A stretch of 59,109 bases of DNA from Puniceicoccales bacterium. Its GTDB lineage: Bacteria; Verrucomicrobiota; Verrucomicrobiia; Opitutales; JAIRLM01. The notes below the pieces were generated by a model that saw only the letters and a list, made by a program, of their open reading frames with translations, was not told the DNA's origin and did no database searches. Both the position numbers and the translations under genes were made by a program. The stretch's first letter is position 1; each line of letters starts with the position of its first letter. Below, piece by piece: positions 29,158 through 56,219 of the stretch. Location: positions 1 to 59,109 of the forward strand of contig JAITOA010000018.1 in the NCBI GenBank assembly GCA_031290195.1, in the 5' to 3' direction.

Positions 29158-30120
29158 CGGATGCACAGTTCCATGGATCGTTAAATTTTTCCCATCGGAG
29201 GAACATTGCCAATGTGCGGCCAGGGAATGGCAAAATTTTTTACCGCACTCTATGTTTTCTAGAAAAATTGCCATCTGCCGCCGGCTAACAGTGAATTTTT
29301 GTTCCGAAAAGAAACGGTGAAGGACCCGCCTCCGCAGGGCCCGGGGGGCGCCTTTGAGAGGTTCTAGTCGCAGGAAGGAGCCCGCCACGGAAATTTCATG
29401 GAGGTCACTGGCCAGCGATTCCAGGGCATCGGAGTCTTCGAGGAGCAATTCCCGACTGTGGAGCAGTGACCTTTCAAAGTTCCGCAGCGGTTCGAAGGAG
29501 CGCCAGAGGGGCAGCAGTTCCAGACGGACACGGTTTCTGGTGTGGACAGGCTGGCCGTTGGTTTCGTCCTCGCACCAGGGCTGACCAATGGCCACCAAAT
29601 ATTGTTTCAAGTTCTCCTTCGTTAGGTGCAATAGGGGGCGCAGGTGCACGCTTCCATCCAGAAATCGCTGGACTTCACGGGGTGCCGTAAGTCCCTCCAA
29701 ATTAGCTCCGCGGGCCAGCCGCAGCAGAAAAGTTTCCAGGGCGTCGTCCCGATGGTGGGCGGTGAGCAGGTAGGGCGTGTGATAGTCGGCCATGACACGG
29801 CGGAAAAATGCCATCCGGTGCCGCCGAAGGTCCGCCTCATTGAGTCCGCCCCCATTCTCCAGGGAGGACCGGTGAAAGGGAAGTTCCAGCTCCGAAGTCA
29901 GATTTTCCACAAATTTTTGATCCCGCCGGGAAGTTATTGGCCGAACGCCGTGGTCAAAGTGGAGAACGGCGAGCCGACTCCGCAGCTGCGGAGTCGTTCC
30001 GTGGAGAAGACGGAGGAGGGCGACGGAGTCGGCGCCGCCGGAGCAGGCGACACAGAGGACTTCCCCGGGAAATTCTCCGGTGGCGGCGAGCGCGTTTTCG
30101 GAGAGAAAAACTCCTTCCAC
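28945..30120 (-). CDS. tilS: tRNA(Ile)-lysidine synthase
   Basis: PP-loop VACSGGADSVALL lies about 25 aa after GTG 30120. The ORF is open to 30399, but that extension has no homology and overlaps the divergent gene. The last ~70 codons run antisense to the MATE gene. Confidence 0.88.
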   Translation of the reverse strand: MEGVFLSENALAATGEFPGEVLCVACSGGADSVALLRLLHGTTPQLRSRLAVLHFDHGVRPITSRRDQKFVENLTSELELPFHRSSLENGGGLNEADLRRHRMAFFRRVMADYHTPYLLTAHHRDDALETFLLRLARGANLEGLTAPREVQRFLDGSVHLRPLLHLTKENLKQYLVAIGQPWCEDETNGQPVHTRNRVRLELLPLWRSFEPLRNFERSLLHSRELLLEDSDALESLASDLHEISVAGSFLRLEPLKGAPRALRRRVLHRFFSEQKFTVSRRQMAIFLENIECGKKFCHSLAAHWQCSSDGKNLTIHGTVHPSRRRGPMPHPVETVAQVKSDDEKNLTDGLHNEEGGAVVGHSEGNESRDNDHPGVAEQAGPHGKKSVPEGS

Positions 30121-30251
30121 CGACGCAGGACAAAAAAAATTCAGAGGGAAGCAAGAATTTCGACCGGGAAAAATGGAATGGAAAATGTGAAGAAGATCCT
30201 TTTTTGCAAAAAACCCTTGCGCAGAAAGAAAAAAGTTTGGAAAATCCGACC

Positions 30252-33200
30252 GTGATCTACTGGAAACGGCGACGGGTGTTATCAAATTGCAGCGGCATTT
30301 CAGGGAAGAAAGGAAGCGGTGGGTCGGCCGGAGCGGACAAATCCGGGCCATCACTACGGAAAAATCTTCTTTTCGGTCTGATCGCCGCAGTAACGGCATT
30401 TTTCCCGGTCCAGTCTGCCACCGCGGCCGTTTACAGCTACACTGATAGCATAGGAGCCCGCGTCGAAGCTGAGGAGTCTTTGGCCATTTTCGGAAATGAA
30501 ATCGTTGTTGAGGGTGAGTACTATTTTACTCCGGACAGCAGTACATGTGATAACAAGGTGCAAGTAAACTACGGTAGCGCGAAAGCCGATCCGGACCATA
30601 TTTTTGGTGGCCTGTCCATCGGAATCGGCAATGTCCATGGCAATGAAGTTGAAGTCATAAATGACAATGACTGTGAAACCGTGAATATCCACGGAGGATT
30701 TGCTTTCTACGGGGACGCGTATGGGAATGAGCTGATGATTGGTGCATCCGCCTCCGCCAATGGAGCCATGGGGGGATCCGCTTACCTGGGGAATGCCCAT
30801 GGCAATATCCTCACATTTCGGGGAATTTTTGCGGACTTCCTCTGTGGAGGTTGCGTTGGTTCCAGGGGAAATGCCTACGAAAATGAAGTGATCATTTCTG
30901 CGGACGACGACAGCACCATCGAGAAAGTTCACGGCGGAAGAACCTTCTGGGGAGATGCCTGTAGCAACGTTGTGTCTGTTTTCGGTGGAACTATTTCCGA
31001 AGAAATCCACGGCGGCGAAGTCATGAACGACGGCAATGCCCATGGAAATTCGGTAAAAATTTTTGCGTCCTCTGATGAGTGCGATGTGACCATATTTGGC
31101 GGCAGCGTCGCGGGAATGGGTGATGCCTACGGAAATGTCGTTGGGGTTGTTGGTGAGAACGATGACGGTGACCTCTTCTCCGTTGGCGCTATTCAGACGT
31201 CCGTCGGCGACATCCATGGAGGCTACGCGAACAGCGGAGATGCCTACGGGAATAACGTTTACTTTTCCGGGGGTTCCGGAGGAAATTTCTACGGCGGCAC
31301 ATCCATGGCCAATGGGTGTATCGGAAATGCATATAATAACAGAGTAAAAGTTTTTTCCGGGGAAGTTGGGGATGTCCACGGGGGATACTGCGCCGGATCT
31401 GGAAATGTGTATGGCAATGGGGTGGAAATTTCCGGATCCGACACCGAAGTGGGATCCGTTTTCGGAGGCTATGTCCAATTGGTATGTAGAGAGATAGAAT
31501 ATGAGGATGAGGATGGAGATATAGAGGAAGTGGAAGATGAAGTTCCCGCCGCCCCCGCCGGAGTCGCATCCGGCAAATATGAAGTTATCGGCGGCTTCGG
31601 AGACGCATCCGGCAATTTTGTATCTTTTTCGGGTGCCCATTCCGCCGATGTCTTCGGCGGGAAAACTTCTTTCGGCGATTCCTGCGGCAATGTGGTGTCA
31701 ATTTCCTCCGGAGAAATTTCCGATTCCGTCATCGGTGGATGTAGCTTTAAGGGTCATTCCTGCAACAATGTTGTGAATATTTCCGGTGATAGTACGTCCG
31801 TTGCATACTGCATTGTAGGCGGCTGCGTTGACCTATGGCTCCCCGACGAACCTACGGTGTACGATGATGGGACCGAATTTTCCTACGGAACCTATTGGGA
31901 CTACGAAGACCGCGGTGGTATCGGAAATGCATGTGGAAATAGTGTGAATTTTTCCGGTCAATGGTGCAGCGAGATCTATGGGGGGTACACGTTCTTTGGA
32001 AATGCGAGCGGCAATGCGGTAACCATTTCCGGCGGTGGAATTGATTATGTGTACGGTGGTTACACGGAAAGGGGCGACGCCGATGGCAACACCGTTAATC
32101 TTTCCAATTGCTCAGTTAGAGCAGCCGGTGGTGGCTTGACGGATATCTGGGGTAATGCGCGGAACAATGTCGTCCATGTGAAGGATTCCTCTGTTTGGGG
32201 TCAAGGAGTTTGGGGAGGCAGTGCGGAATTTGGCATAGTCAAAGGCAATAGTGTGTGCATTGAAAACTCCTATGTTTCGGGTTCAATCGTTGGCGGTGAG
32301 GCCGTGGATGCTCGGAGCCACGTGTGCAATAACTCGGTAACTATCGCCGGCACCTCTGACATTTCCAGCGCGACGCTGCTCGGCTGGTCGTCGCTTTCCG
32401 GAGGAACTTTGGCGATGCACGGCGGAAACGCCCTCCATTTGAAGGGTTGGAGAGGAAGCGTTGCCAGCATTCAAAATTTTGAAATTCTCCGCTTCACTCT
32501 ACCTCGAGGAATCGAAAATGGAGAAACCATCGCAACCGTTGCTACCCCTGGCCCACTTAAGGTAGTAGTCTCTGACTGCGGATTAATCCTCCAGGATGAT
32601 TTTCTGGTCGAGATTGCCATCGACGCAACGCCGAAGCTCGTTGGAAACGACGAAATTTGCCTGATCGACGCTTCCGAGTGCGTATCAGGAGACTATGTCG
32701 TGGCCGATTTTGCCAATGACGACGACCAAACCACCTGCCGCTACGGCTGCAGCAATTACACCTTTGACCTGAGCGAAAGAAGTAACTGTCTCTACGCGAA
32801 ACTTACCAACGTCGAGCTCGTTCGCTCCTACCTGCATGGCGTTGCGGCGCGGACCAATGTGATCAATTCCAGCGGCGACCACATTTCCGGGCTCATTGAA
32901 AATTGGCAATTCGAAGAAGATTTCCTCGTGGCCAATAAAAAATTCAGCTGGTTCATCTCCGCCTTCGGAGAAAAAATGCACGCGAAGACAACTCCGGCCG
33001 TGACGAACCGGCGGGGATTGTTTGTTCTTGGCGGTGCCCTGGAGGGAGTTACGGCGACCGGTCAGCTGGTGGCCGGCCTGGCCACGGAGTGGGGCCTGGA
33101 TAGGTACAGTGTCATCGACGACTACGGAGGAGGGGATGGGAAAATTATCCATGCCGGATTAAATCTCTTCGCCATGCACCAGTGCGCCGGCGGGGTCATG

Positions 33201-33716
33201 GCCAGCGTTGCTGCCCGGTTCGGTGCTGGAAAAATTGAAGATGACGACGGCATTGGGGGGGGCTATGAGAATCGGAGCGCCTACTGTGGGACCCGAGTAG
33301 CCATCGGCTACGACCTGAGAGTTTCGCCAAAGGGAACCGTCGAAGGCCTAACAAAGCTCCTTTGGAACCGTCAATTCGATAAAAACTTACTCTCGCGAGC
33401 CGGAGAAGATCTGCGATTCGACGCCGTAAATTCTCTGAGAACCCAACTATGTCTGCGCTACGTGCATAGTACCCCAGAAGGATCCAATCTATTCGCCGGA
33501 ATTGCCTGGGAGAGGGAATTTGACGGAAAGATATCCGGCGGCGTCGGCGCCATCCACTATGGCGGGGACCATCTTGAACGGAAAGACAGTGCTCTTTTTG
33601 AACTTGGCCTGGAAGTCAAAACCGCAGAGCGCTGGGTCCTACAATGCGGCGCCCAGGGTTCAATTGGCGCCAGAGACGGCGTATCCGCAAGCCTGAAATT
33701 CTGCAAGAGCTTCTAG
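30252..33716 (+). CDS. large autotransporter-like outer-membrane repeat protein (paralogue 1)
   Basis: Signal-like LLFGLIAAVTAFFPVQSATA, a passenger of roughly 750 aa built from G(D/N)AxGNxV...GG repeats, and a C-terminal beta-barrel-like ~280 aa ending KFCKSF. Start is GTG 30252 or 30276; the ORF open from 29937 is antisense to tilS. Confidence 0.85.
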   Translation: MIYWKRRRVLSNCSGISGKKGSGGSAGADKSGPSLRKNLLFGLIAAVTAFFPVQSATAAVYSYTDSIGARVEAEESLAIFGNEIVVEGEYYFTPDSSTCDNKVQVNYGSAKADPDHIFGGLSIGIGNVHGNEVEVINDNDCETVNIHGGFAFYGDAYGNELMIGASASANGAMGGSAYLGNAHGNILTFRGIFADFLCGGCVGSRGNAYENEVIISADDDSTIEKVHGGRTFWGDACSNVVSVFGGTISEEIHGGEVMNDGNAHGNSVKIFASSDECDVTIFGGSVAGMGDAYGNVVGVVGENDDGDLFSVGAIQTSVGDIHGGYANSGDAYGNNVYFSGGSGGNFYGGTSMANGCIGNAYNNRVKVFSGEVGDVHGGYCAGSGNVYGNGVEISGSDTEVGSVFGGYVQLVCREIEYEDEDGDIEEVEDEVPAAPAGVASGKYEVIGGFGDASGNFVSFSGAHSADVFGGKTSFGDSCGNVVSISSGEISDSVIGGCSFKGHSCNNVVNISGDSTSVAYCIVGGCVDLWLPDEPTVYDDGTEFSYGTYWDYEDRGGIGNACGNSVNFSGQWCSEIYGGYTFFGNASGNAVTISGGGIDYVYGGYTERGDADGNTVNLSNCSVRAAGGGLTDIWGNARNNVVHVKDSSVWGQGVWGGSAEFGIVKGNSVCIENSYVSGSIVGGEAVDARSHVCNNSVTIAGTSDISSATLLGWSSLSGGTLAMHGGNALHLKGWRGSVASIQNFEILRFTLPRGIENGETIATVATPGPLKVVVSDCGLILQDDFLVEIAIDATPKLVGNDEICLIDASECVSGDYVVADFANDDDQTTCRYGCSNYTFDLSERSNCLYAKLTNVELVRSYLHGVAARTNVINSSGDHISGLIENWQFEEDFLVANKKFSWFISAFGEKMHAKTTPAVTNRRGLFVLGGALEGVTATGQLVAGLATEWGLDRYSVIDDYGGGDGKIIHAGLNLFAMHQCAGGVMASVAARFGAGKIEDDDGIGGGYENRSAYCGTRVAIGYDLRVSPKGTVEGLTKLLWNRQFDKNLLSRAGEDLRFDAVNSLRTQLCLRYVHSTPEGSNLFAGIAWEREFDGKISGGVGAIHYGGDHLERKDSALFELGLEVKTAERWVLQCGAQGSIGARDGVSASLKFCKSF
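33255..33262 (+). repeat. G8 homopolymer inside the barrel-coding part of autotransporter paralogue 1
   Basis: cattGGGGGGGGctat encodes GIGGGY. Confidence 0.95.
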
Positions 33717-42863: not shown

Positions 42864-45539
42864 ATGAGTACGCGCGTTTATTTGCTTTCGAAAAGACTGG
42901 GAATTTCCAATAGGGAACTGATAGATCTCCTACAGGCGAAGGGCTTCGACGTCAGTAGCGCTTCCAGCTCCGTCGCGGACATCTACGCGGAAGACATCTT
43001 GAAGGAATTCGGCCAAAGAGACGTTGCCTCCGGAGAAGAGGAGGAGAACGTTTTGAAAACCGGCTCATCACCTAAAAGTGCGGCAACTGAAAATTTCAGT
43101 GGGCTCGGTGATGTGGATGTCGCCGGCGTAAATTCCCGGGGAAATGTTGGCAAGGGAAGTGATTTTGTCCAGGATGGAGGAGTGCGGCAACGGAGCGGGG
43201 AAATGCCCGAAACAAAGGCCCCCCCCCCAGTTCCATCGCCTCCGGAAAAAGTTCAGGGATCACGACCTCCGCAGCGGGAAAGAATCATGCCTCAGCTCCT
43301 GAAGGTTCCTTCCAAGGAATCGCCGGTGGAACGTCCTCGAATGATTCCACTGGAGAGGCTGCAGTCTTCCATAAGAGCACAGTATAATCGCTTCAACGGA
43401 CGCAATGAAAGGCATAGTGGAGAGAAATTTCCCTTCCATGATCGGAGAGGACCGCAGCAGCAGTTGGGTGGTGGAGATGGTCGTAGTGGACGAGACTTTC
43501 ACGGCGGACGGACGGACCGATTCGGTGAAAATCGACCCTTTTCTCCCGGATTGAGCCGGCCGGGCATTCCAGGAAGTGGAGGCCAGGAATTGCGCCGCGG
43601 GGACTTCCGCGCTCCCGCTCGGCAAGTTCCCGCGGCGCCGAAACCAATGGAAAGCGATGTCTTTCGTCCGCGCCCCGCGCCCGTTGTTCCCGCGCAGCAG
43701 TTTGCAATACCGATGGCGGCAGAATTCCCAAGTTTAGCAGCCAAAAAAATTCTGCCGATGAAATTTCCGGTCAGCGTCCGTGAGTTTGCTCCGGAAATTG
43801 GATTAAAACCCTTCCAGCTCATCTCGGAACTGATGCAAATGGGTATTTTTGCCTCCATGAACTACCTGATGGATGAGCCTATTGCCCAAAAAGTTGCAGG
43901 GAAATTTGGCTTTTCCGTTGAGGTGCGGCGCGATCCCATTGCCGCGGCACCGGTCCAACGCGTGGCAAGAGCCAAGCGAATTTCCCCGGACATCACTCTG
44001 GAAGAACGTCCTCCCATCGTCTGCGTCCTAGGCCACGTTGACCATGGCAAGACAACCTTGCTCGATGCCATCCGTCGGACCAGCGTCGCAGCTGGGGAAG
44101 CGGGTGGAATTACCCAGCACATTGGTGCCTATGGGGTGGAGTGTGGTGGGCGCAAAATTACCTTCATCGACACCCCCGGACATGCGGCGTTTTCCAAGAT
44201 GCGGGAGCGGGGCGCCAATTTGACGGACATCGCTATTCTCGTGGTAGCCGCGGATGATGGGTTCATGCCTCAAACCGATGAAGCTCTCAAATTCGCTCAG
44301 AAAGCCGGGGTTCCCGTCGTGGTGGCCATCAATAAAATGGACGCCAAGGGTGCCAATTTAGACCGAGTTAAGCAGCAAATGCAGCAGAGAGGAATTGCCT
44401 CGGAAGATTGGGGCGGTGAGACTCTTTGCACAATAATTTCTGCCCTGAAGGGCGAGGGAATCCAGGCGCTTCTAGAATTAATTCTCGTGCAGGCAGAGAT
44501 GTTGGCGCTGCAGGCCGATTACCACGGTCCGGTACAGGGAGTCGTCGTGGAGTCTCAAGTCGAAGTCGGCCGGGGACCAACCGCCTCTGCCATCGTGCAG
44601 GAAGGAACTCTCAAAGTGGGCGATGCACTGGTCTGCGGTGTTCAGTTTTGCAAGGTGCGATCGCTGGTCGGGGACCGTGGCCAAACGCTCGAGGAAGCAT
44701 CGCCGTCGACTCCGGTGAAAATTTCCGGATGGAGCGGACCACTGGAAGTAGGTGCGGTGTTCGTTCGGGCGGAAAGTGAAAAGGTCGCTCGGGCCCAAGC
44801 CGATGAAAACCGATTGGCGGAAGAAGCTCCCGCGGGTGATAGCCTTCCACAGGAGAGAGGCCGACGGAGGCAGGATGCTGCCAAGGGGAGTTTGGATGTC
44901 CTCTTTGCGGCCATAAATGCCAAGCAAAAGAAGACCCTGCGCGTAGTTCTACGGGCGGATGTGAGGGGTAGCGCTGAGGCTCTTTCGGCCTGTTTGAATG
45001 CGCTACCCCAGGAAAAAATTGAATTGGAGATTCTTCAGGAAGAAGTGGGACTTGTCTCCAAGGGAGACGTAGAATTTTCCGTATCTTCCGGAGCCGTCAT
45101 TGTCGCCTTTAACACAAAGATGGAAAATGGGGTGCAGGCATTGCTTAAGCAGCACGGAGTGCGGCTTCTCCAACACAATATCATCTACATGATCATCGAA
45201 CAGGTACGCGACGCCATGGCGGACTTGCTGGAACCGGAAATCCAGGAAGAAAAGCTAGGGGTTGCCCAGGTGCGACAGGTGTTTACTCTCTCCAAGGGGG
45301 TCATCGCCGGCTGCATGGTAACCGAAGGAAAAATCATCCGCGATGCTCTGGCTCGAATTCATAGGGAGGGGAAGCAAATTTCCGAGGGGAAAATTACTTC
45401 CCTGCGGAGGACCAAGGAAGATGCGACGGAAGTGCGGGCGGGCTATGAATGTGGAATTTCCCTTTCAAACTATGAATTTTACCAGGTCGGTGATTCCGTT
45501 GAGTGCTACAAAATTAACAAAATTCGACCCAATCTTTAG
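42864..45539 (+). CDS. infB: translation initiation factor IF-2
   Basis: N-terminal [24 protein letters not shown] domain [14 protein letters not shown] / DTPGHAAF / NKMD, and a low-complexity Pro/Arg/Gly linker. Confidence 0.96.
43219..43228 (+). repeat. C10 homopolymer inside infB linker region
   Basis: ggCCCCCCCCCCag encodes APPP. Confidence 0.95.
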
Positions 45540-45913: not shown

Positions 45914-50476
<4,563 letters not shown>

Positions 50477-50552
50477 TGGGGATTTTGGCAATGGAATTTT
50501 CAGAAAAGGGCATCCCCTTGACAGATGTTTTTTCAATGCACAAAATGTCCAG

Positions 50553-51089
50553 ATGGCAAGGGAGGGGCAGCGTGGATTTACTCTGCTGGAGATGGTGGTG
50601 GTCCTTACTCTCCTGGCGATGGCGTCGGCATTTACTTTTCACTTTCCGCAGCGTGCCACCCACGGATCCGTCGCATCCAAAGTACTTCAGTCCTATCTGC
50701 AGAGCGTGGTTGACCACGGCCTCTCCCACGGCACTTCTAACCGAAAATTACTCATTGGCAATTCGAAGCAGAGGGAAGGAGCCCTCTGTGAATTTCTTCT
50801 GGCAATCGAAGGGGAAGGAGAATTCGAAATCAGAGCAGATCTACGCTGTGACCTGAGCAACTTTGGCACCATTGCCCCGCCCGGTGACGGTCTCTGGGAT
50901 AGCCATTTCCCGGCTGTTCCACTGGAAATCAAGAACACCATGGCGGGGCGATGGCTTGCCGTTCCTTTGGAAAATTTTTTACCAACAACCGCCGATTCAC
51001 TGCGCATCGTCTTTCTCCCTCGGAACGGGAGTCGACCCACCCAATTCTCCATTTCCGCCAATGGAAAAGTTATCGCAGAAAAAATGTGA
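50553..51089 (+). CDS. prepilin-type N-terminal cleavage/methylation domain protein (pseudopilin)
   Basis: MAREGQRG/FTLLEMVVVLTLLAMASAF. Confidence 0.75.
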   Translation: MAREGQRGFTLLEMVVVLTLLAMASAFTFHFPQRATHGSVASKVLQSYLQSVVDHGLSHGTSNRKLLIGNSKQREGALCEFLLAIEGEGEFEIRADLRCDLSNFGTIAPPGDGLWDSHFPAVPLEIKNTMAGRWLAVPLENFLPTTADSLRIVFLPRNGSRPTQFSISANGKVIAEKM

Positions 51090-51456
51090 GGGATTTACCC
51101 TCATCGAAGTTGCGGCGGCTCTGGTACTTTTGCTGCCAGTGCTACTTCTGGCCAATGAAATGTTCCTCTACCTGCAACGCCAATTTGCCCTCCAGGTGGC
51201 CCGGGCAGAACTGCCGGAACTCCGTAGGACCCTCGAAGATTTTTTGGAAAAAACAAGTCGCACGCCACACGGCGGAGAGTCTACCGTAGGCGTCACCTGG
51301 CATCGGAACGATGCCGGAACGATTCAAATTGAAGAATTGCAGGACGAAAAATTGCCAAAAAAATACCTGCAACTCACTCCCGTGGCCGGCATCGACCTCT
51401 GGCGCTGCGAATGGCAAAATGGAGAACTGTTCCGTGCCTTCTTCCTGGCTCCCTAG
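51061..51456 (+). CDS. prepilin-type N-terminal cleavage/methylation domain protein (pseudopilin)
   Basis: MEKLSQKKCEG/FTLIEVAAALVLLLPVLLLA. Overlaps the preceding pseudopilin gene by 29 nt. Confidence 0.7.
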   Translation: MEKLSQKKCEGFTLIEVAAALVLLLPVLLLANEMFLYLQRQFALQVARAELPELRRTLEDFLEKTSRTPHGGESTVGVTWHRNDAGTIQIEELQDEKLPKKYLQLTPVAGIDLWRCEWQNGELFRAFFLAP

Positions 51457-51650
51457 GCGGGACAGGGGGTCTACTTGCGCCGAAAACGTCTTACCAAACT
51501 CCGACTCTCCTCGAAGAGCCAGCACCCGAACGTGGTGAATTTCATGGCAACGGGGAGTTGCCATCGTTAAAAATTTATTGCGCATCCGTGTGTTTTTTTA
51601 GAAAATTAAGAACCATGGGTAAAAAAGTCTTTGCGGATACCTCCTTGGGA

Positions 51651-51659
51651 GGGGGGGGG
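51651..51659 (+). repeat. G9 homopolymer at the translation start of autotransporter paralogue 2
   Basis: ttGGGAGGGGGGGGGATG. The tract fills the spacer between an SD-like GGGAGG and ATG 51660. If ATG 51615 is used instead, it encodes Gly-Gly-Gly. Confidence 0.95.
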
Positions 51660-54068
51660 ATGAGTCTCCTCCGGAAAATTCAACGGCGGTCGCGGATAGG
51701 ACAATCTCTACGGAGAAAAGCACTGGCCATCCTGCTGGTCGCCGCGGTGCCACTGCTTCCCCAGCAAGTGGTGGCTGAACCGGTTTCACTTAGCGGTAGT
51801 ATGCTTTCTAATTACTACTATGGAGTGAAAGCGGAGGGTGCGGATGAAGCGGCCACCGGCGGTGAACTGATGGTCAATGGTTGTACTTTTCCTAGCACTG
51901 GTTACCTTTCCGCTGGATACAGCGCTGAAAGTTATGCAACAGGCAACTCGGTAACATTTACCGGTGATTCGACGAGCTTTGAAGGTTCAGGCAATAGCAT
52001 TCGCGGTGGATGCTCAGATCATTTCCATGCCCAGGACAATGCCATCACATTCAGCGCCAATGTAACTTACACCAATAGTTTAAGCGAAGAAGAAATCTGT
52101 GGTGGCGATGCCGGCTTGAAAGCAACGGGCAATGGGGTGACCATTGACGACGGAGTGGTACTGAACTTTCTTAATGCCAGAGGCAGAATCTATGGCGCGG
52201 AGGCTGCCTACGCCAATGGCAATTGGGTTGCCGTGTTGGGAAAGGTGGATGTCACAGATGGTTGGGTCGAACTCGCTGGAGCTTGCGGTTATTACTCTGC
52301 TTCCTGGAACACCGTGACAGTCTCCGGTGGCTCCGTCAAAGCTAACATTTTTGGGGGATGCAGTGAAGGGTCTGTAAGCTGTAACAGCGTCATTGTCACC
52401 GGAGGTGCCGAAGTGGCAAAAGGGAAAGAAAGGGAAGGTCTACCAAATGGTATTTCTGGAGGTTTCTCTATGGTCAATTCTGCTGCCGGCAACAAAGTTT
52501 GCATTTCCGGAGAGGAAACGACCGTCGGTTCTGTTGCAGAGAGAATTAATGTCTACGGTGGTTTTATATACACGTATGGAGACTTGGACATTCCTTGCAT
52601 CGGGAACGCCGTTGAAATCAGCGGCGGAACCATTGCAGCGGACATCTTCGGTGGCTATGCATTGAACTTTGGAGGCAATGGCTACGCGGTAGTTTCCAAT
52701 AACACCCTGTGGATTCGCGGTGGGTCTGATACTATAAATCTGGAGGAGTCAAATTTATATGGTTGGGGAGGAGAAGGATACATAATTCACAGCAACAACA
52801 CACTACACGTGGACAATTGGCGCGGAACGGTGAAGTCCATTCAAAATTTTGACAGGTTTCACTTTACCCTTCCCGAAGACGTTGCCGACGGCGACCTTCT
52901 ACTCCAGGTTTCCGGAACCGCTTCCTGGCCAGACGGCACATTGGCGACAATCGACTTCGCCGGAGACGAGACCGGCCTCGAATTCGGGGACAGCATTACG
53001 CTAATCCAAGCGGACGAGTTGACCGCGGGAACCCTCTGCGCCGATCGGGTAGTTGCTTTTCTGGACGGCAACCCGTTTGCCTTCACGCTTTCCGTGGATG
53101 GGAATAGCCTCCTTGCCACGCTGGAAAATATCCTCTCCGTTCCGTCGGGAAGTAGCCACCTTGCCGCCATAGACCGCTCCTACTTCCACGGCATCGCGGC
53201 CGCGGTGGCCGGAGAAAATGCCGGCGGCGACTCCATTTCCCGGGTCATTGACAATTGGCAATTCGGTGAAGCCAAGGACCTTGGCCGATTCCTCTGGTTC
53301 GGGTCTTTCCAGGGAGACAAAGTCCTCATGCGGGCGGCACCGGTGGTGGAAAATAAGTCCTGCCACTTCAATGTCGGCGGCGCCGTTGAATATAAATCCT
53401 ACCACGGCAACTTCCTCACCGGCGTCGCCGCTGAAAGCAGTTGGAGCGACTACGACGTGGAGCAATCCCTCGGCGGCGGCGGCGGAAAAGTGCGCCACCA
53501 CGGGGCCAATTTCTTCGCGAAGCAGCGCTTCGCCTCCGGGACCGACCTTGCACTCATTGTCCGCGGCGGCAGGGGGAAAGTCCGCGACGATTCCGGCACC
53601 GATTGCTGCCGCAGCTACGACGGCCGGTCCAGCTACCACGGCGTCCAGGGGTCTCTCGGACGGCAGTTTCGAATCTCCGCGGAGGAATCCCTCGAGGGCT
53701 ACGGAAAATTTTCCTGGAACCGGAGAACCCGGAGTGACCTTCCGACGGCCGGAGGCGGAGAGCTGCACGTCGACGCGGTGAATTCCCTCCGGGGCCAGCT
53801 GGGTCTGCGCTATTGCAGCGAGTTAAAAGTCGACGGAAACATCTTCTGCGGCATCGGCTTCGAACACGAGTTCGACGGCCGAATCGGAGGAACGATCGGA
53901 GCAACGGCCCTTCCAAAGGTCGGCGATGACCGGCGCAATTGCGGCTTCGCCGAGGTCGGTGTGGACCGAAGGATCTCCGGCCGCTGGGTCCTCAGCGGCG
54001 GCATCCGGGCAATGGCGGGCGCCAGGGACGGCTGGTCGGGCGGCATCCGCATCGGCGCGGCCTTCTGA
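51660..54068 (+). CDS. autotransporter-like outer-membrane repeat protein (paralogue 2)
   Basis: Signal MSLLRKIQRRSRIGQSLRRKALAILLVAAVPLLPQQVVA, the same GNxV..GG repeats as paralogue 1, and a C-terminal barrel-like domain ending IRIGAAF. An alternative start at ATG 51615 has no SD. Confidence 0.85.
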   Translation: MSLLRKIQRRSRIGQSLRRKALAILLVAAVPLLPQQVVAEPVSLSGSMLSNYYYGVKAEGADEAATGGELMVNGCTFPSTGYLSAGYSAESYATGNSVTFTGDSTSFEGSGNSIRGGCSDHFHAQDNAITFSANVTYTNSLSEEEICGGDAGLKATGNGVTIDDGVVLNFLNARGRIYGAEAAYANGNWVAVLGKVDVTDGWVELAGACGYYSASWNTVTVSGGSVKANIFGGCSEGSVSCNSVIVTGGAEVAKGKEREGLPNGISGGFSMVNSAAGNKVCISGEETTVGSVAERINVYGGFIYTYGDLDIPCIGNAVEISGGTIAADIFGGYALNFGGNGYAVVSNNTLWIRGGSDTINLEESNLYGWGGEGYIIHSNNTLHVDNWRGTVKSIQNFDRFHFTLPEDVADGDLLLQVSGTASWPDGTLATIDFAGDETGLEFGDSITLIQADELTAGTLCADRVVAFLDGNPFAFTLSVDGNSLLATLENILSVPSGSSHLAAIDRSYFHGIAAAVAGENAGGDSISRVIDNWQFGEAKDLGRFLWFGSFQGDKVLMRAAPVVENKSCHFNVGGAVEYKSYHGNFLTGVAAESSWSDYDVEQSLGGGGGKVRHHGANFFAKQRFASGTDLALIVRGGRGKVRDDSGTDCCRSYDGRSSYHGVQGSLGRQFRISAEESLEGYGKFSWNRRTRSDLPTAGGGELHVDAVNSLRGQLGLRYCSELKVDGNIFCGIGFEHEFDGRIGGTIGATALPKVGDDRRNCGFAEVGVDRRISGRWVLSGGIRAMAGARDGWSGGIRIGAAF

Positions 54069-54341
54069 TTTTGCTAGAAGCACTACCCGATTTAGGCCCT
54101 CCCCCTCCAAGCCGCACGGACGCTGAAATCAACGGCCATTAAAAATGAGCTCGCTTTGCGTATTCCTGTCCTAGAGAGTCGCTTAAGAAATGTGGTGATA
54201 CTTTGAAAGAGGTCTACTGAAAATTTCACAAAATATTAGCGGAAAATCGTAGAATCTACCACACTCCTAAAAAATTTAATGGAAGTCCTTCCTTGGAAAT
54301 GCGTTGCCGCAATTGGGGAAATTGCCCAATAGGACTGTTCC

Positions 54342-56219
54342 ATGGCTAAATTTTTTTTGACGGTCATCGGCTTTCTGATCTTCCTCCTCCCCAGATGGTT
54401 CCTGTGCAGCTTCTGCCACTGTCTCGGCGCCGTATTTTTTTACGGAGTGCCGCGGAGGCGCCGCTCCATGCTAAATAATTTGCTCCATGTTTATCCAAAT
54501 TTGGACGGGAAGGAGCTACGCTCCATCGCACGGAAAAGCGCCGATCGGCTCATCGAAATGGGTCTCTTCGCCTTGGCATCTCCCCGTTTTTCTCCTCGGT
54601 ACATCCTCCGGCAATTTTCCCTGCGAGGACCCTGGGAGGAGGTGTTCCGCTGCGATCGTCCTCAGCTAATTCTCGTTCCCCACCAAACATTGACGGAGGC
54701 TCTGACATTCGTTCCCCTTTTTCTGCGCATTCCCCGGGAGGAACTACGGGTGGGGGTTCTCTACAGGCCATTCGACGGCATGGGTTTGGAGAAATTTGTT
54801 AAAAAAACCCGCGAACGCTTCGGCATCCGACTGCTCTCCCGGAAAGACGGATTGGTCACCTCTGCCAATTTTTTGCGGCACAATGGCTGCGTCGGGCTGC
54901 TTTTCGACCAGCATGCTGGAGCATCCGGCGTGCAGACATTTCTCTGCGGGAAAGTAACTTCAACGACCCAATTGCCGGAAATTCTCCTCAAGCACAGTGG
55001 AGCGCAGGTCTCCGTGGCCTCCGTAGAACGGACGGCATTCTGGAAAGGCACCCTGGTCATTGAGCCTTTTCCCGTGACCGCGGAGACCGTTGGCGGCGCC
55101 ATGGATAGCTGGTTGGAGGAGCAACTTCTTGGCAGCAAAAACTTCCGCGATAACTGGCTCTGGGCCCACAATCGCTGGAAGCGACCCATAAATCAACTGC
55201 TTAACCTCGGCGCTCGGAAAAATAGACTTCCCGGGGCCCTTCGGAGGGACCGATCGGGCGACCTTCCCAGAAAAACGGAGTTCTATGTCCGCATGCCCAA
55301 CCGACTTGGAGAGACAATTCTGGCTCTGCCCATCCTTAGAGCCCTCCACGCGGGCCGCCCGGATGCCCGCATCACAGCTCTCTGCCCTATCCCCCATGCC
55401 AAATGGCTCACATCGCTCCCCTTCATCGACGGGGCACTTCCTCTCCCCGAGGGAAAATTTGGCTATTTCCGCCACATGCGGAAAAATTTTCGGAAATTTC
55501 CAGATCTGCACCTCCTTTTCACCGACTCCCTCCGCGGGGATCTGGAGGCATTTTTTCTAGGGGCAACCGTCCGCATCGGATTTTCTCGGAACCATTTTCA
55601 CCGCCGCCCGCTGCTTACCCACCGTCTTCCCCTGGAACGGGCGCCAACCTTGCATTGGACGGAAGTCCGCCATCGGGCGCTAAAAAAACTAGGTCTTTCG
55701 GAGGAGCTTTCCTTGGAGCCACTCCTGGAGCCGAGATCACAGGCCCTTCCCCGGCGCATCGGCCTGCTTTTCAATTCTCGGCAAAGTCGAAAAATTTTTG
55801 GGTCGGAAGAACGCTGGAATTTTCTGATTCAACGACTGCTGGAATGGGATCCGGAAGTGCACATCCTTCTCTGCGGTGTCCGGGAAGATGCCGCCGCCGC
55901 GGAAAAAATTTTGAAAAATTTCCCCCTGGACCGCGTTTCCAATGGGACGAGTAGGAGCTCTCTTCCGGCTCTCGCGGAGGAATTGCACGGCTGCGGCGCC
56001 GCGGTGGTCGCCGATTTTGATGGACTGCACCTGGCCAATGCTCTGGGTGTGCCCGCTGTCGCCCTCCCGGGGCTTGTAAACTCACCCTCCAACGACCCCA
56101 TTTTTTCTTCTCCGAAAGTAATTTTTCGCCCACCTGCCCTCGACGCCCCGATGGAAAAAATTACAGCGGAAGCCGTTTTCACTGCCCTCCAAGACCTCCT
56201 GGAAAAAACGCCGTCATAG
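54342..56219 (+). CDS. fusion protein: lipid A late acyltransferase (LpxL/HtrB family) + glycosyltransferase family 9 (LPS heptosyltransferase-like)
   Basis: N-terminal half: TM anchor, NLLHVYPNLDGKEL, LLFDQHAGASGVQTFLCGKVTSTT, NWLWAHNRWK (cf. DQd..G.fv.FFG..a.t and QYlWlHrRwK). C-terminal half: YVRMPNRLGETILALPILRALHAGRPDARI and ADFDGLHLANALGVPAVAL, which are GT9 hallmarks. Confidence 0.85.
   Translation: MAKFFLTVIGFLIFLLPRWFLCSFCHCLGAVFFYGVPRRRRSMLNNLLHVYPNLDGKELRSIARKSADRLIEMGLFALASPRFSPRYILRQFSLRGPWEEVFRCDRPQLILVPHQTLTEALTFVPLFLRIPREELRVGVLYRPFDGMGLEKFVKKTRERFGIRLLSRKDGLVTSANFLRHNGCVGLLFDQHAGASGVQTFLCGKVTSTTQLPEILLKHSGAQVSVASVERTAFWKGTLVIEPFPVTAETVGGAMDSWLEEQLLGSKNFRDNWLWAHNRWKRPINQLLNLGARKNRLPGALRRDRSGDLPRKTEFYVRMPNRLGETILALPILRALHAGRPDARITALCPIPHAKWLTSLPFIDGALPLPEGKFGYFRHMRKNFRKFPDLHLLFTDSLRGDLEAFFLGATVRIGFSRNHFHRRPLLTHRLPLERAPTLHWTEVRHRALKKLGLSEELSLEPLLEPRSQALPRRIGLLFNSRQSRKIFGSEERWNFLIQRLLEWDPEVHILLCGVREDAAAAEKILKNFPLDRVSNGTSRSSLPALAEELHGCGAAVVADFDGLHLANALGVPAVALPGLVNSPSNDPIFSSPKVIFRPPALDAPMEKITAEAVFTALQDLLEKTPS

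Follow-up and report, generated by a model that had tools for sequence, protein, structure and literature searches.

In Neisseria meningitidis, the autotransporters NalP and MspA are ON only at tract lengths of 7, 10 or 13 Cs and 6, 9 or 12 Cs respectively, as established by immunoblotting and strain surveys (PMC3723659). In the chlamydial PmpG group, poly-G tracts of at least eight residues vary in length between paralogues and strains, with frameshifts at the tracts, a pattern that has been interpreted as phase variation together with gene conversion (bioRxiv 10.1101/506121; PMC3323650). Similarly, the length of coding G/C tracts of about nine or more residues in bapC and tcfA of Bordetella pertussis differs from strain to strain and even within one culture (PMC1891110). 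Here we describe a run of nine Gs (G9) on the forward strand of a 59,109-nucleotide stretch of DNA (hereafter the window; the whole of contig JAITOA010000018.1 of assembly GCA_031290195.1), which comes from a metagenome-assembled genome (MAG) of the Puniceicoccales (Verrucomicrobiota) from a termite gut, present in both NCBI and IMG. The run lies at the 5' end of an autotransporter gene, which we call paralogue 2. We tentatively propose, at somewhat less than an even chance, that it is a slippage-prone tract within the initial 45 coding bases of a type Va autotransporter gene, carried within a leader cassette common to several members of a large autotransporter family. It would then be a plausible candidate for a contingency locus, of a type already known but in a new lineage, with switching as a prediction.

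What the locus has in common with NalP and MspA is a G/C homopolymer in the coding part of a type Va autotransporter gene, with in-frame lengths that are three residues apart (here G6, G9 and G12). However, switching has been demonstrated in the meningococcal genes and is predicted here; furthermore, an in-frame ATG stands right after the tract in the present gene, the leader is common to several paralogues and the host is a termite-gut member of the Verrucomicrobiota. With PmpG, the locus shares a large paralogous autotransporter family whose poly-G tracts differ between paralogues, although the window protein has a different passenger repeat pattern. Chlamydiae and Verrucomicrobiota are usually grouped in the PVC superphylum. 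Membership of the Pmp family was rejected, as the protein has no Pfam match to that family and only one GGA[ILV] and three FxxN motifs in 802 aa. The resemblance to bapC and tcfA is that of long G/C tracts in autotransporter genes; in the Bordetella fim genes, by contrast, C-stretches act in promoters, a role that finds no support here. In the opa genes of Neisseria, CTCTT repeats lie in the region encoding the signal peptide, and in the vlp genes of Mycoplasma hyorhinis a poly-A tract lies in a conserved promoter. The present locus resembles these in having a conserved, repeat-bearing 5' cassette across many family members, each copy of which could switch independently, but it differs in repeat type and position, and independent switching of the copies is conjecture here. 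For Verrucomicrobiota, the literature searches made found no more than a list of candidate homopolymers, in the Akkermansia genome paper (PMC3048395).

The G tract and the autotransporter gene

The tract is uninterrupted and directly abuts an ATG codon (local sequence ACCTCCTTGGGAGGGGGGGGGATGAGTCTCC; positions 51640-51669 read CCTCCTTGGGAGGGGGGGGGATGAGTCTCC). The features discussed below are the following.

51651..51659, + strand: candidate slippage tract G9, by direct reading and matched by a Logan contig of SRR14710898
51647..51652, + strand: GGGAGG resembling a Shine-Dalgarno (SD) motif, 7 nt before ATG 51660
51660..51662, + strand: ATG abutting the tract, which may serve as a second or an internal start and overlaps the TGA of the -1 slip frame (ATGA)
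51615..51617, + strand: upstream ATG, the start in the source annotation (817-aa product)
51584..51765, + strand: shared leader cassette (AT-rich stretch, N-terminal extension, G tract, signal peptide), defined by word depth and overlapping contigs
51615..54068, + strand: autotransporter paralogue 2, of 817 aa from ATG 51615 or 802 aa from ATG 51660
51660..51776, + strand: putative signal peptide MSLLRKIQRRSRIGQSLRRKALAILLVAAVPLLPQQVVA, read by eye
53100..54068, + strand: predicted translocator domain (linker helix and beta-barrel; AlphaFold2 model and Foldseek), with the C-terminal end ...GAAF
30276..33716, + strand: autotransporter paralogue 1, start uncertain (GTG 30276 or 30252)

A first-pass annotation of the window had placed the nine Gs exactly between the SD-like GGGAGG and ATG 51660, and this is confirmed by the sequence and by Logan's independent assembly of SRR14710898, which matches the window over 51300-51728 with no mismatches and no gaps. 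Because the independent assembly reproduces this region exactly, G9 is the dominant allele in that run. The locus is known from the contigs of this one public run, a termite gut metagenome, and searches with the whole 5' region, with the leader alone and with the C-terminal part found no other. As GGGA precedes G9, the Gs form part of a 13-nt G-rich run (51647-51659), and the SD-like GGGAGG is probably merely its 5' portion. The same annotation had described an upstream ATG 51615, without an SD motif, from which the tract would be coding, and a reading of the sequence agrees: this ATG is in frame with ATG 51660, translation from 51615 gives MGKKVFADTSLGGGGMSLL, and immediately 5' of it is an AT-rich stretch. 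The open frame extends back to 51411, and the preceding gene stops at 51456. With nine Gs, the tract has the length of about 7-9 uninterrupted G or C residues that has been applied as a threshold for candidate contingency loci (PMC1891110; bioRxiv 10.1101/506121).

The product of paralogue 2 shows features of a type Va autotransporter. By inspection, its putative signal peptide has an n-region with eight K or R residues, a hydrophobic core ALAILLVAAVPLL and VVA before E; read from ATG 51660, it is a conventional one with 20 residues in the n-region. Neither paralogue matches Pfam PF03797 directly, paralogue 2 not even at E 10. Residues 545-794 of paralogue 2 can be aligned to the PF03797 domain of P0001, the closest homologue in the database (28% identity; pairwise E 8e-59), and a profile derived from the alignment matches the beta-domains of Hbp and BrkA at E about 3e-3. 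The AlphaFold2 model of the last 322 residues (pLDDT 80, pTM 0.78) consists of a long helix (19-51) followed by a beta-barrel, and the best Foldseek matches of this model are EspP, EstA, BrkA, Hbp, AIDA-I and NalP (E 6e-14 to 7e-9), with EspP at E 6e-14 and BrkA at a TM-score of 0.86, normalised to target length. The C-terminal residue is F, and a passenger repeat pattern, N.V.I.GG....YGG, is common to paralogue 2 and its homologues. The domain alignment to P0001, the profile match to Hbp and BrkA, the helix-plus-barrel model and the Foldseek matches together justify the autotransporter label, and paralogue 2 is, as judged from these alignments and models, a genuine type Va autotransporter.

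Paralogue 1 is 32% identical to paralogue 2 over 716 aa (E 1e-74). Its coding region (30276-33716) matches the NCBIfam 'LOFI repeat' model NF038205 at E 2e-7, a repeat named from Campylobacter proteins. In its 5' region (29937-30440) there is no in-frame ATG before the signal peptide; the possible starts are GTG 30252, GTG 30276 or TTGs farther upstream. In place of the G tract, the leader of paralogue 1 has a stretch rich in purines, GGGAAGAAAGGAAG, and the alignment of the two leaders is too weak to judge whether GGGAAGAAAGGAAG is a decayed tract. A second candidate tract, G8 at 33255-33262, lies within the C-terminal domain of paralogue 1 (DDGIGGGYENRS), where a slip of ±1 would truncate the translocator.

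Sister copies of the leader and the start codon

The leader that carries the tract is present in many copies. In SRR14710898, its word depth is 27-80x over 51584-51765, against about 8-12x in the flanks, and it occurs in at least five distinct contigs. Measured by region, the depth is about 8x in the passenger (51788-52466), 34-50x in the leader (51594-51787) and 48-259x in the C-terminal 1.3 kb. Because the word depth of the leader and of the C-terminal part is far above that of the passenger, paralogue 2 belongs to a large family that has both of these parts in common.

At least five versions of the leader are present in the run, each with a G-run at the tract position. Copy (a) is the window's own leader, GGGAG9-ATG. 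Copy (b), a 158-nt contig, has a 6-nt in-frame deletion (51647-51652) and three substitutions, of which 51642 and 51645 are T>C and 51660 is A>G; its tract region is CCCCCCT-G8-TGAGT, with GTG in place of ATG 51660. In copy (c), a 153-nt contig, the region reads CCCCCTCC-G12-ATGTCTCC, and with its longer upstream context ...TACGGATGCCCCCTCC-G12-ATGTCTCC. Copies (d) and (e) are two contigs that start at 51652 with exactly eight Gs. These lengths are compared between copies, not between established orthologues. All the indels that the leader comparisons reported are at the tract or next to it.

The reconstruction of copy (b) finds support outside the run's contigs. Its translation equals the first 39 residues of MDR3316628.1 (P0013, MGKKVFADTPLGGVSLLRK...), a protein of a sister MAG, an identity that we take, on sequence grounds, as independent confirmation of the reconstruction. 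The sister MAG also encodes two more barrels that are at least 90% identical to that of paralogue 2, and a fragment at 89%. The proteins MDR3316640.1 and MDR3316801.1 and the locus LBS68_03170 also belong to this MAG. The leader-bearing open reading frame (ORF) of P0013 stops after 87 aa, although its sequence goes on to resemble the start of a passenger; among the sister-MAG proteins P0013, P0019 and P0015, another copy is annotated from an internal Met and has no signal peptide. Several members of the family in this MAG may be frameshifted or broken by assembly.

Such repetition raises the possibility that the tract length, or the join between leader and body, is an artefact of sequencing or assembly. 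Both the leader and the C-terminal 1.3 kb are indeed multi-copy, and only 59% of the sampled window words for 52800-54068 occur in Logan contigs, so the 3' part may be collapsed or chimeric. However, the two assemblers gave identical sequence over 51300-51728 and 51709-52719, with no mismatches, and the sister MAG has a G-run at the same place. Because the 5' part is identical in two assemblies, an artefact there is unlikely, and as a general account of the tract this explanation has very little probability. The depth over the C-terminal region (52758-54115, 48-259x) points to a very large family and possibly to a collapsed or chimeric assembly.

The leader has a narrow distribution. A search of 1.84 billion representative sequences gave P0013 as the sole real match, and no other carrier was found among 15 billion proteins; P0017 and P0018, considered as leader matches, were rejected as unrelated repeat proteins. 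No matches were obtained in JGI metagenomes for a conserved 25-mer of the leader or for a degenerate 24-mer, and a scan of GTDB through the downstream neighbour gene returned one distant Puniceicoccales MAG (45% amino acid identity), with no autotransporter in synteny. Proteins closely related to those of the window carry the label Puniceicoccales bacterium, which places the organism in the Verrucomicrobiota. A 5' homopolymer is absent from paralogue 1 and from the distant homologue P0001. Since neither of these has one and the leader was found nowhere else, the G tract appears, from these comparisons, to be a trait of this leader and not of autotransporters generally. The idea of a poly-G trait of the wider autotransporter family was therefore rejected.

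The sister copies also bear on the start codon, for which the first-pass annotation had offered two layouts. If translation starts at ATG 51660, GGGAGG would be the SD motif and the nine Gs its spacer, and slippage would retune the spacing as a volume control. In favour of this, ATG 51660 follows GGAGG at a distance of 7 nt and begins a signal peptide of conventional form, with 20 residues in its n-region, and among the likely gene starts of the window GGAGG is the only canonical, well-placed SD. However, volume control of this kind presupposes a conserved SD at a distance set by the repeat, and neither GGGAGG nor the ATG is conserved: GGGAGG (51647-51652) is deleted in copy (b) and replaced by Gs in copy (c), and as for the adjacent ATG, copy (b) has GTG in its place, whereas copy (c), which lacks two bases immediately 3' of it, has it in a different frame from the signal peptide. 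With its ATG out of frame, copy (c) has a tract that can only be coding. Furthermore, canonical SD motifs are scarce before the likely starts of the approximately 36 long ORFs in the window, most of which have none, and the source annotations begin upstream. Finally, a slip would change the spacing from 7 to 6 or 8 nt, from which a small effect is expected, as spacings of 6 or 8 nt are within the usual working range. We therefore regard the SD-spacer layout as improbable. The scarcity of SD motifs across the window also suggests low SD usage in the organism as a whole.

The other layout, with a start at ATG 51615 and a coding tract, is favoured by the same sequence comparisons. In each of the three copies with a readable upstream part, an upstream ATG opens a frame that continues unbroken across the tract to the signal peptide; it reads MGKKVFADTSLGGGGMSLL in (a), MGKKVFADTPLGGVSLL in (b) and MPPPGGGGCLL in (c). 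The C-rich motif stands 15, 9 and 15 bases from the position of the start codon in (a), (b) and (c), in each case a multiple of three. In the source annotation, exact-sequence look-up in the protein collection found the 817-aa form (start 51615) only, and P0013 of the sister MAG is annotated from the same upstream ATG. Thus, the lack of conservation of GGGAGG and its ATG, the open upstream frame in three copies, the annotations and the scarcity of SD motifs all argue for translation from ATG 51615 over the SD-spacer layout.

Predicted effects of slippage

The sequences show the tract, its frames, the autotransporter identity and the multi-copy leader with its differing lengths, whereas the start codon, the hypermutability of the tract and any effect on expression are inferred. 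With translation from ATG 51615, the tract would encode the glycines of MGKKVFADTSLGGGG, which extends the signal peptide at its N-terminus, and the reading frame would shift whenever replication added or dropped one G. In silico, the lengths that keep the frame are G6, G9 and G12. With G7, G10 and G13, 54 out-of-frame codons span the signal-peptide region (with the G10 stop at codon 55), and G8 and G11 end at the TGA that overlaps ATG 51660 (ATGA), which for G8 is codon 16. G9, and also G6 and G12, would thus be ON and G10 would be OFF. With G8, the short ORF would terminate at ATGA. Overlaps of the ATGA type often permit re-initiation, and protein with a shorter signal peptide could still be made. 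Because this overlap could permit re-initiation at ATG 51660, the switch in the window copy would be graded or leaky rather than clean, perhaps with three states.

With regard to what is expected of a contingency locus, a change of ±1 in this 5' coding region alters the frame, and so predicted expression, in silico, although ATG 51660 may blunt the effect. Surface exposure of the product is suggested by its predicted autotransporter identity and by the large multi-copy family. The first-pass proposal of a phase-variation layout thus stands in so far as the autotransporter is real, the tract is long enough and the sister copies differ in length; it falls short in that both assemblies have G9, and ON/OFF switching is a prediction.

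Several observations weigh against a switch at this locus. To begin with, G/C runs of at least eight residues number three in the window, namely C10 at 43219-43228, G8 at 33255-33262 and the G9 at 51651-51659. The first-pass count of three, two of them in the autotransporter paralogues, was correct, and the remaining run (C10) is in infB. The view that such runs are rare is right as a raw count but does not extend beyond chance. The G+C content of the window is 54.3%. For runs of at least eight, 2.6 are expected from base composition alone and 1.7 from a third-order Markov model, against three observed; for runs of at least nine, the expectations are 0.7 and 0.4, against two observed. Long G/C runs are thus no commoner in the window than expected by chance. 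Both paralogues are rich in glycine (15-16%), which favours G-runs there, and the non-random aspects of the tract are its place and its presence in sister copies, not its rarity. The C10, the longest G/C run, encodes prolines (KAPPPV) in the N-terminal region of infB (IF-2). Because it sits in this essential gene as a single clean contig in SRR14710898, long G/C runs are tolerated here without obvious switching.

Other points against are closer to the tract itself. At the locus of copy (a), G9 is the only length seen in the assembled contigs: both assemblies agree and there is no indel-variant contig. This lack of heterogeneity is weak evidence, because contigs drop rare variants. The differences between copies may be ordinary paralogue divergence and not hypermutation, and a switch could be blunted by ATG 51660, from which, with GGAGG at a suitable spacing, the protein might be made whatever the state of the tract. 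As for the start at ATG 51615, the annotated starts are choices of gene finders and not experiments, copy (c) is a single 153-nt contig, and the 35-residue n-region that results is long. An N-terminal extension of the ESPR type was considered and rejected, as neither the 132-aa N-terminus nor P0013 matched PF13018 at E 10.

Many of these points would also be explained by a static tract, that is, an inherited G-rich, poly-glycine piece of the leader in which slippage is too rare to matter or is harmless by virtue of ATG 51660. The chance-level run count in glycine-rich genes, the clean C10 in infB, the single length at this locus and the lack of a 5' homopolymer in paralogue 1 and P0001 are all consistent with it. 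However, all visible copies of the leader retain 8-12 uninterrupted Gs though their flanks differ by 7-19%, the reported indels cluster at or beside these Gs, and elsewhere G/C runs of at least eight to nine residues are length-variable in culture or between strains (PMC1891110; PMC3723659). On balance, we consider a static tract unlikely, if a serious alternative to the coding switch.

A further possibility is that the tract acts at the level of RNA or transcription, through altered promoter clearance from a position near the transcription start, through slippage of RNA polymerase on G9 to give mixed transcripts, or through pairing with the flanking CCUCC or CUCCUCC that would hide the start. 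A short way upstream there is an AT-rich block (51570-51612), which copy (b) matches exactly from 51584 onward, and the G-run can pair with 51640-51644 or 51666-51672, with the AUG in the loop. Against this, no sigma-70-like promoter passed a scan of 51000-52000, the fold does not exceed shuffled sequence in stability (z = 0.48) and Rfam gave no match. A sigma-70 promoter and a structured RNA or riboswitch at the tract were both rejected on these results, and an effect at this level seems very unlikely.

If the coding switch is real, it may be more than a property of one gene. The leader could be a portable poly-G switch cassette, with the copies of a very large family switching independently to give combinatorial surface variation in a non-pathogenic symbiont associated with the gut or its protists, and with the ATGA overlap of the window copy adding a third state (a short signal peptide by re-initiation). 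This broader proposal is speculative, and we think it rather doubtful at present.

Implications and neighbouring genes

Work on homopolymer-based phase variation has been confined almost entirely to pathogens and to commensals of humans. If the proposal is true, symbionts of invertebrate guts also use contingency loci, the uses of which might include defence against phages, protist hosts or host immunity, and this would be, as far as our searches went, the first demonstrated repeat-based contingency system in the Verrucomicrobiota. Furthermore, the parallel to the chlamydial Pmp proteins would provide a second lineage in which to ask how such families arise. If the tract is static, it is an ordinary G-rich leader. 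There is also a consequence for annotation, in that assemblers and gene finders cope badly with such a tract, and the start codon and frame of these MAG genes hinge on it.

The genes on either side of paralogue 2 are of other types. Directly 5' of it, at 50454-51456, is a pair of genes in tandem whose products have prepilin-type N-terminal methylation motifs (PF07963); the second gene probably starts at ATG 51061. On the 3' side, a single 625-aa ORF (54342-56219) combines a lipid A acyltransferase domain (PF03279) with a GT9 heptosyltransferase-like domain (PF01075), and this PF03279-PF01075 fusion is also present, at 45% identity, in the GTDB Puniceicoccales MAG L002.

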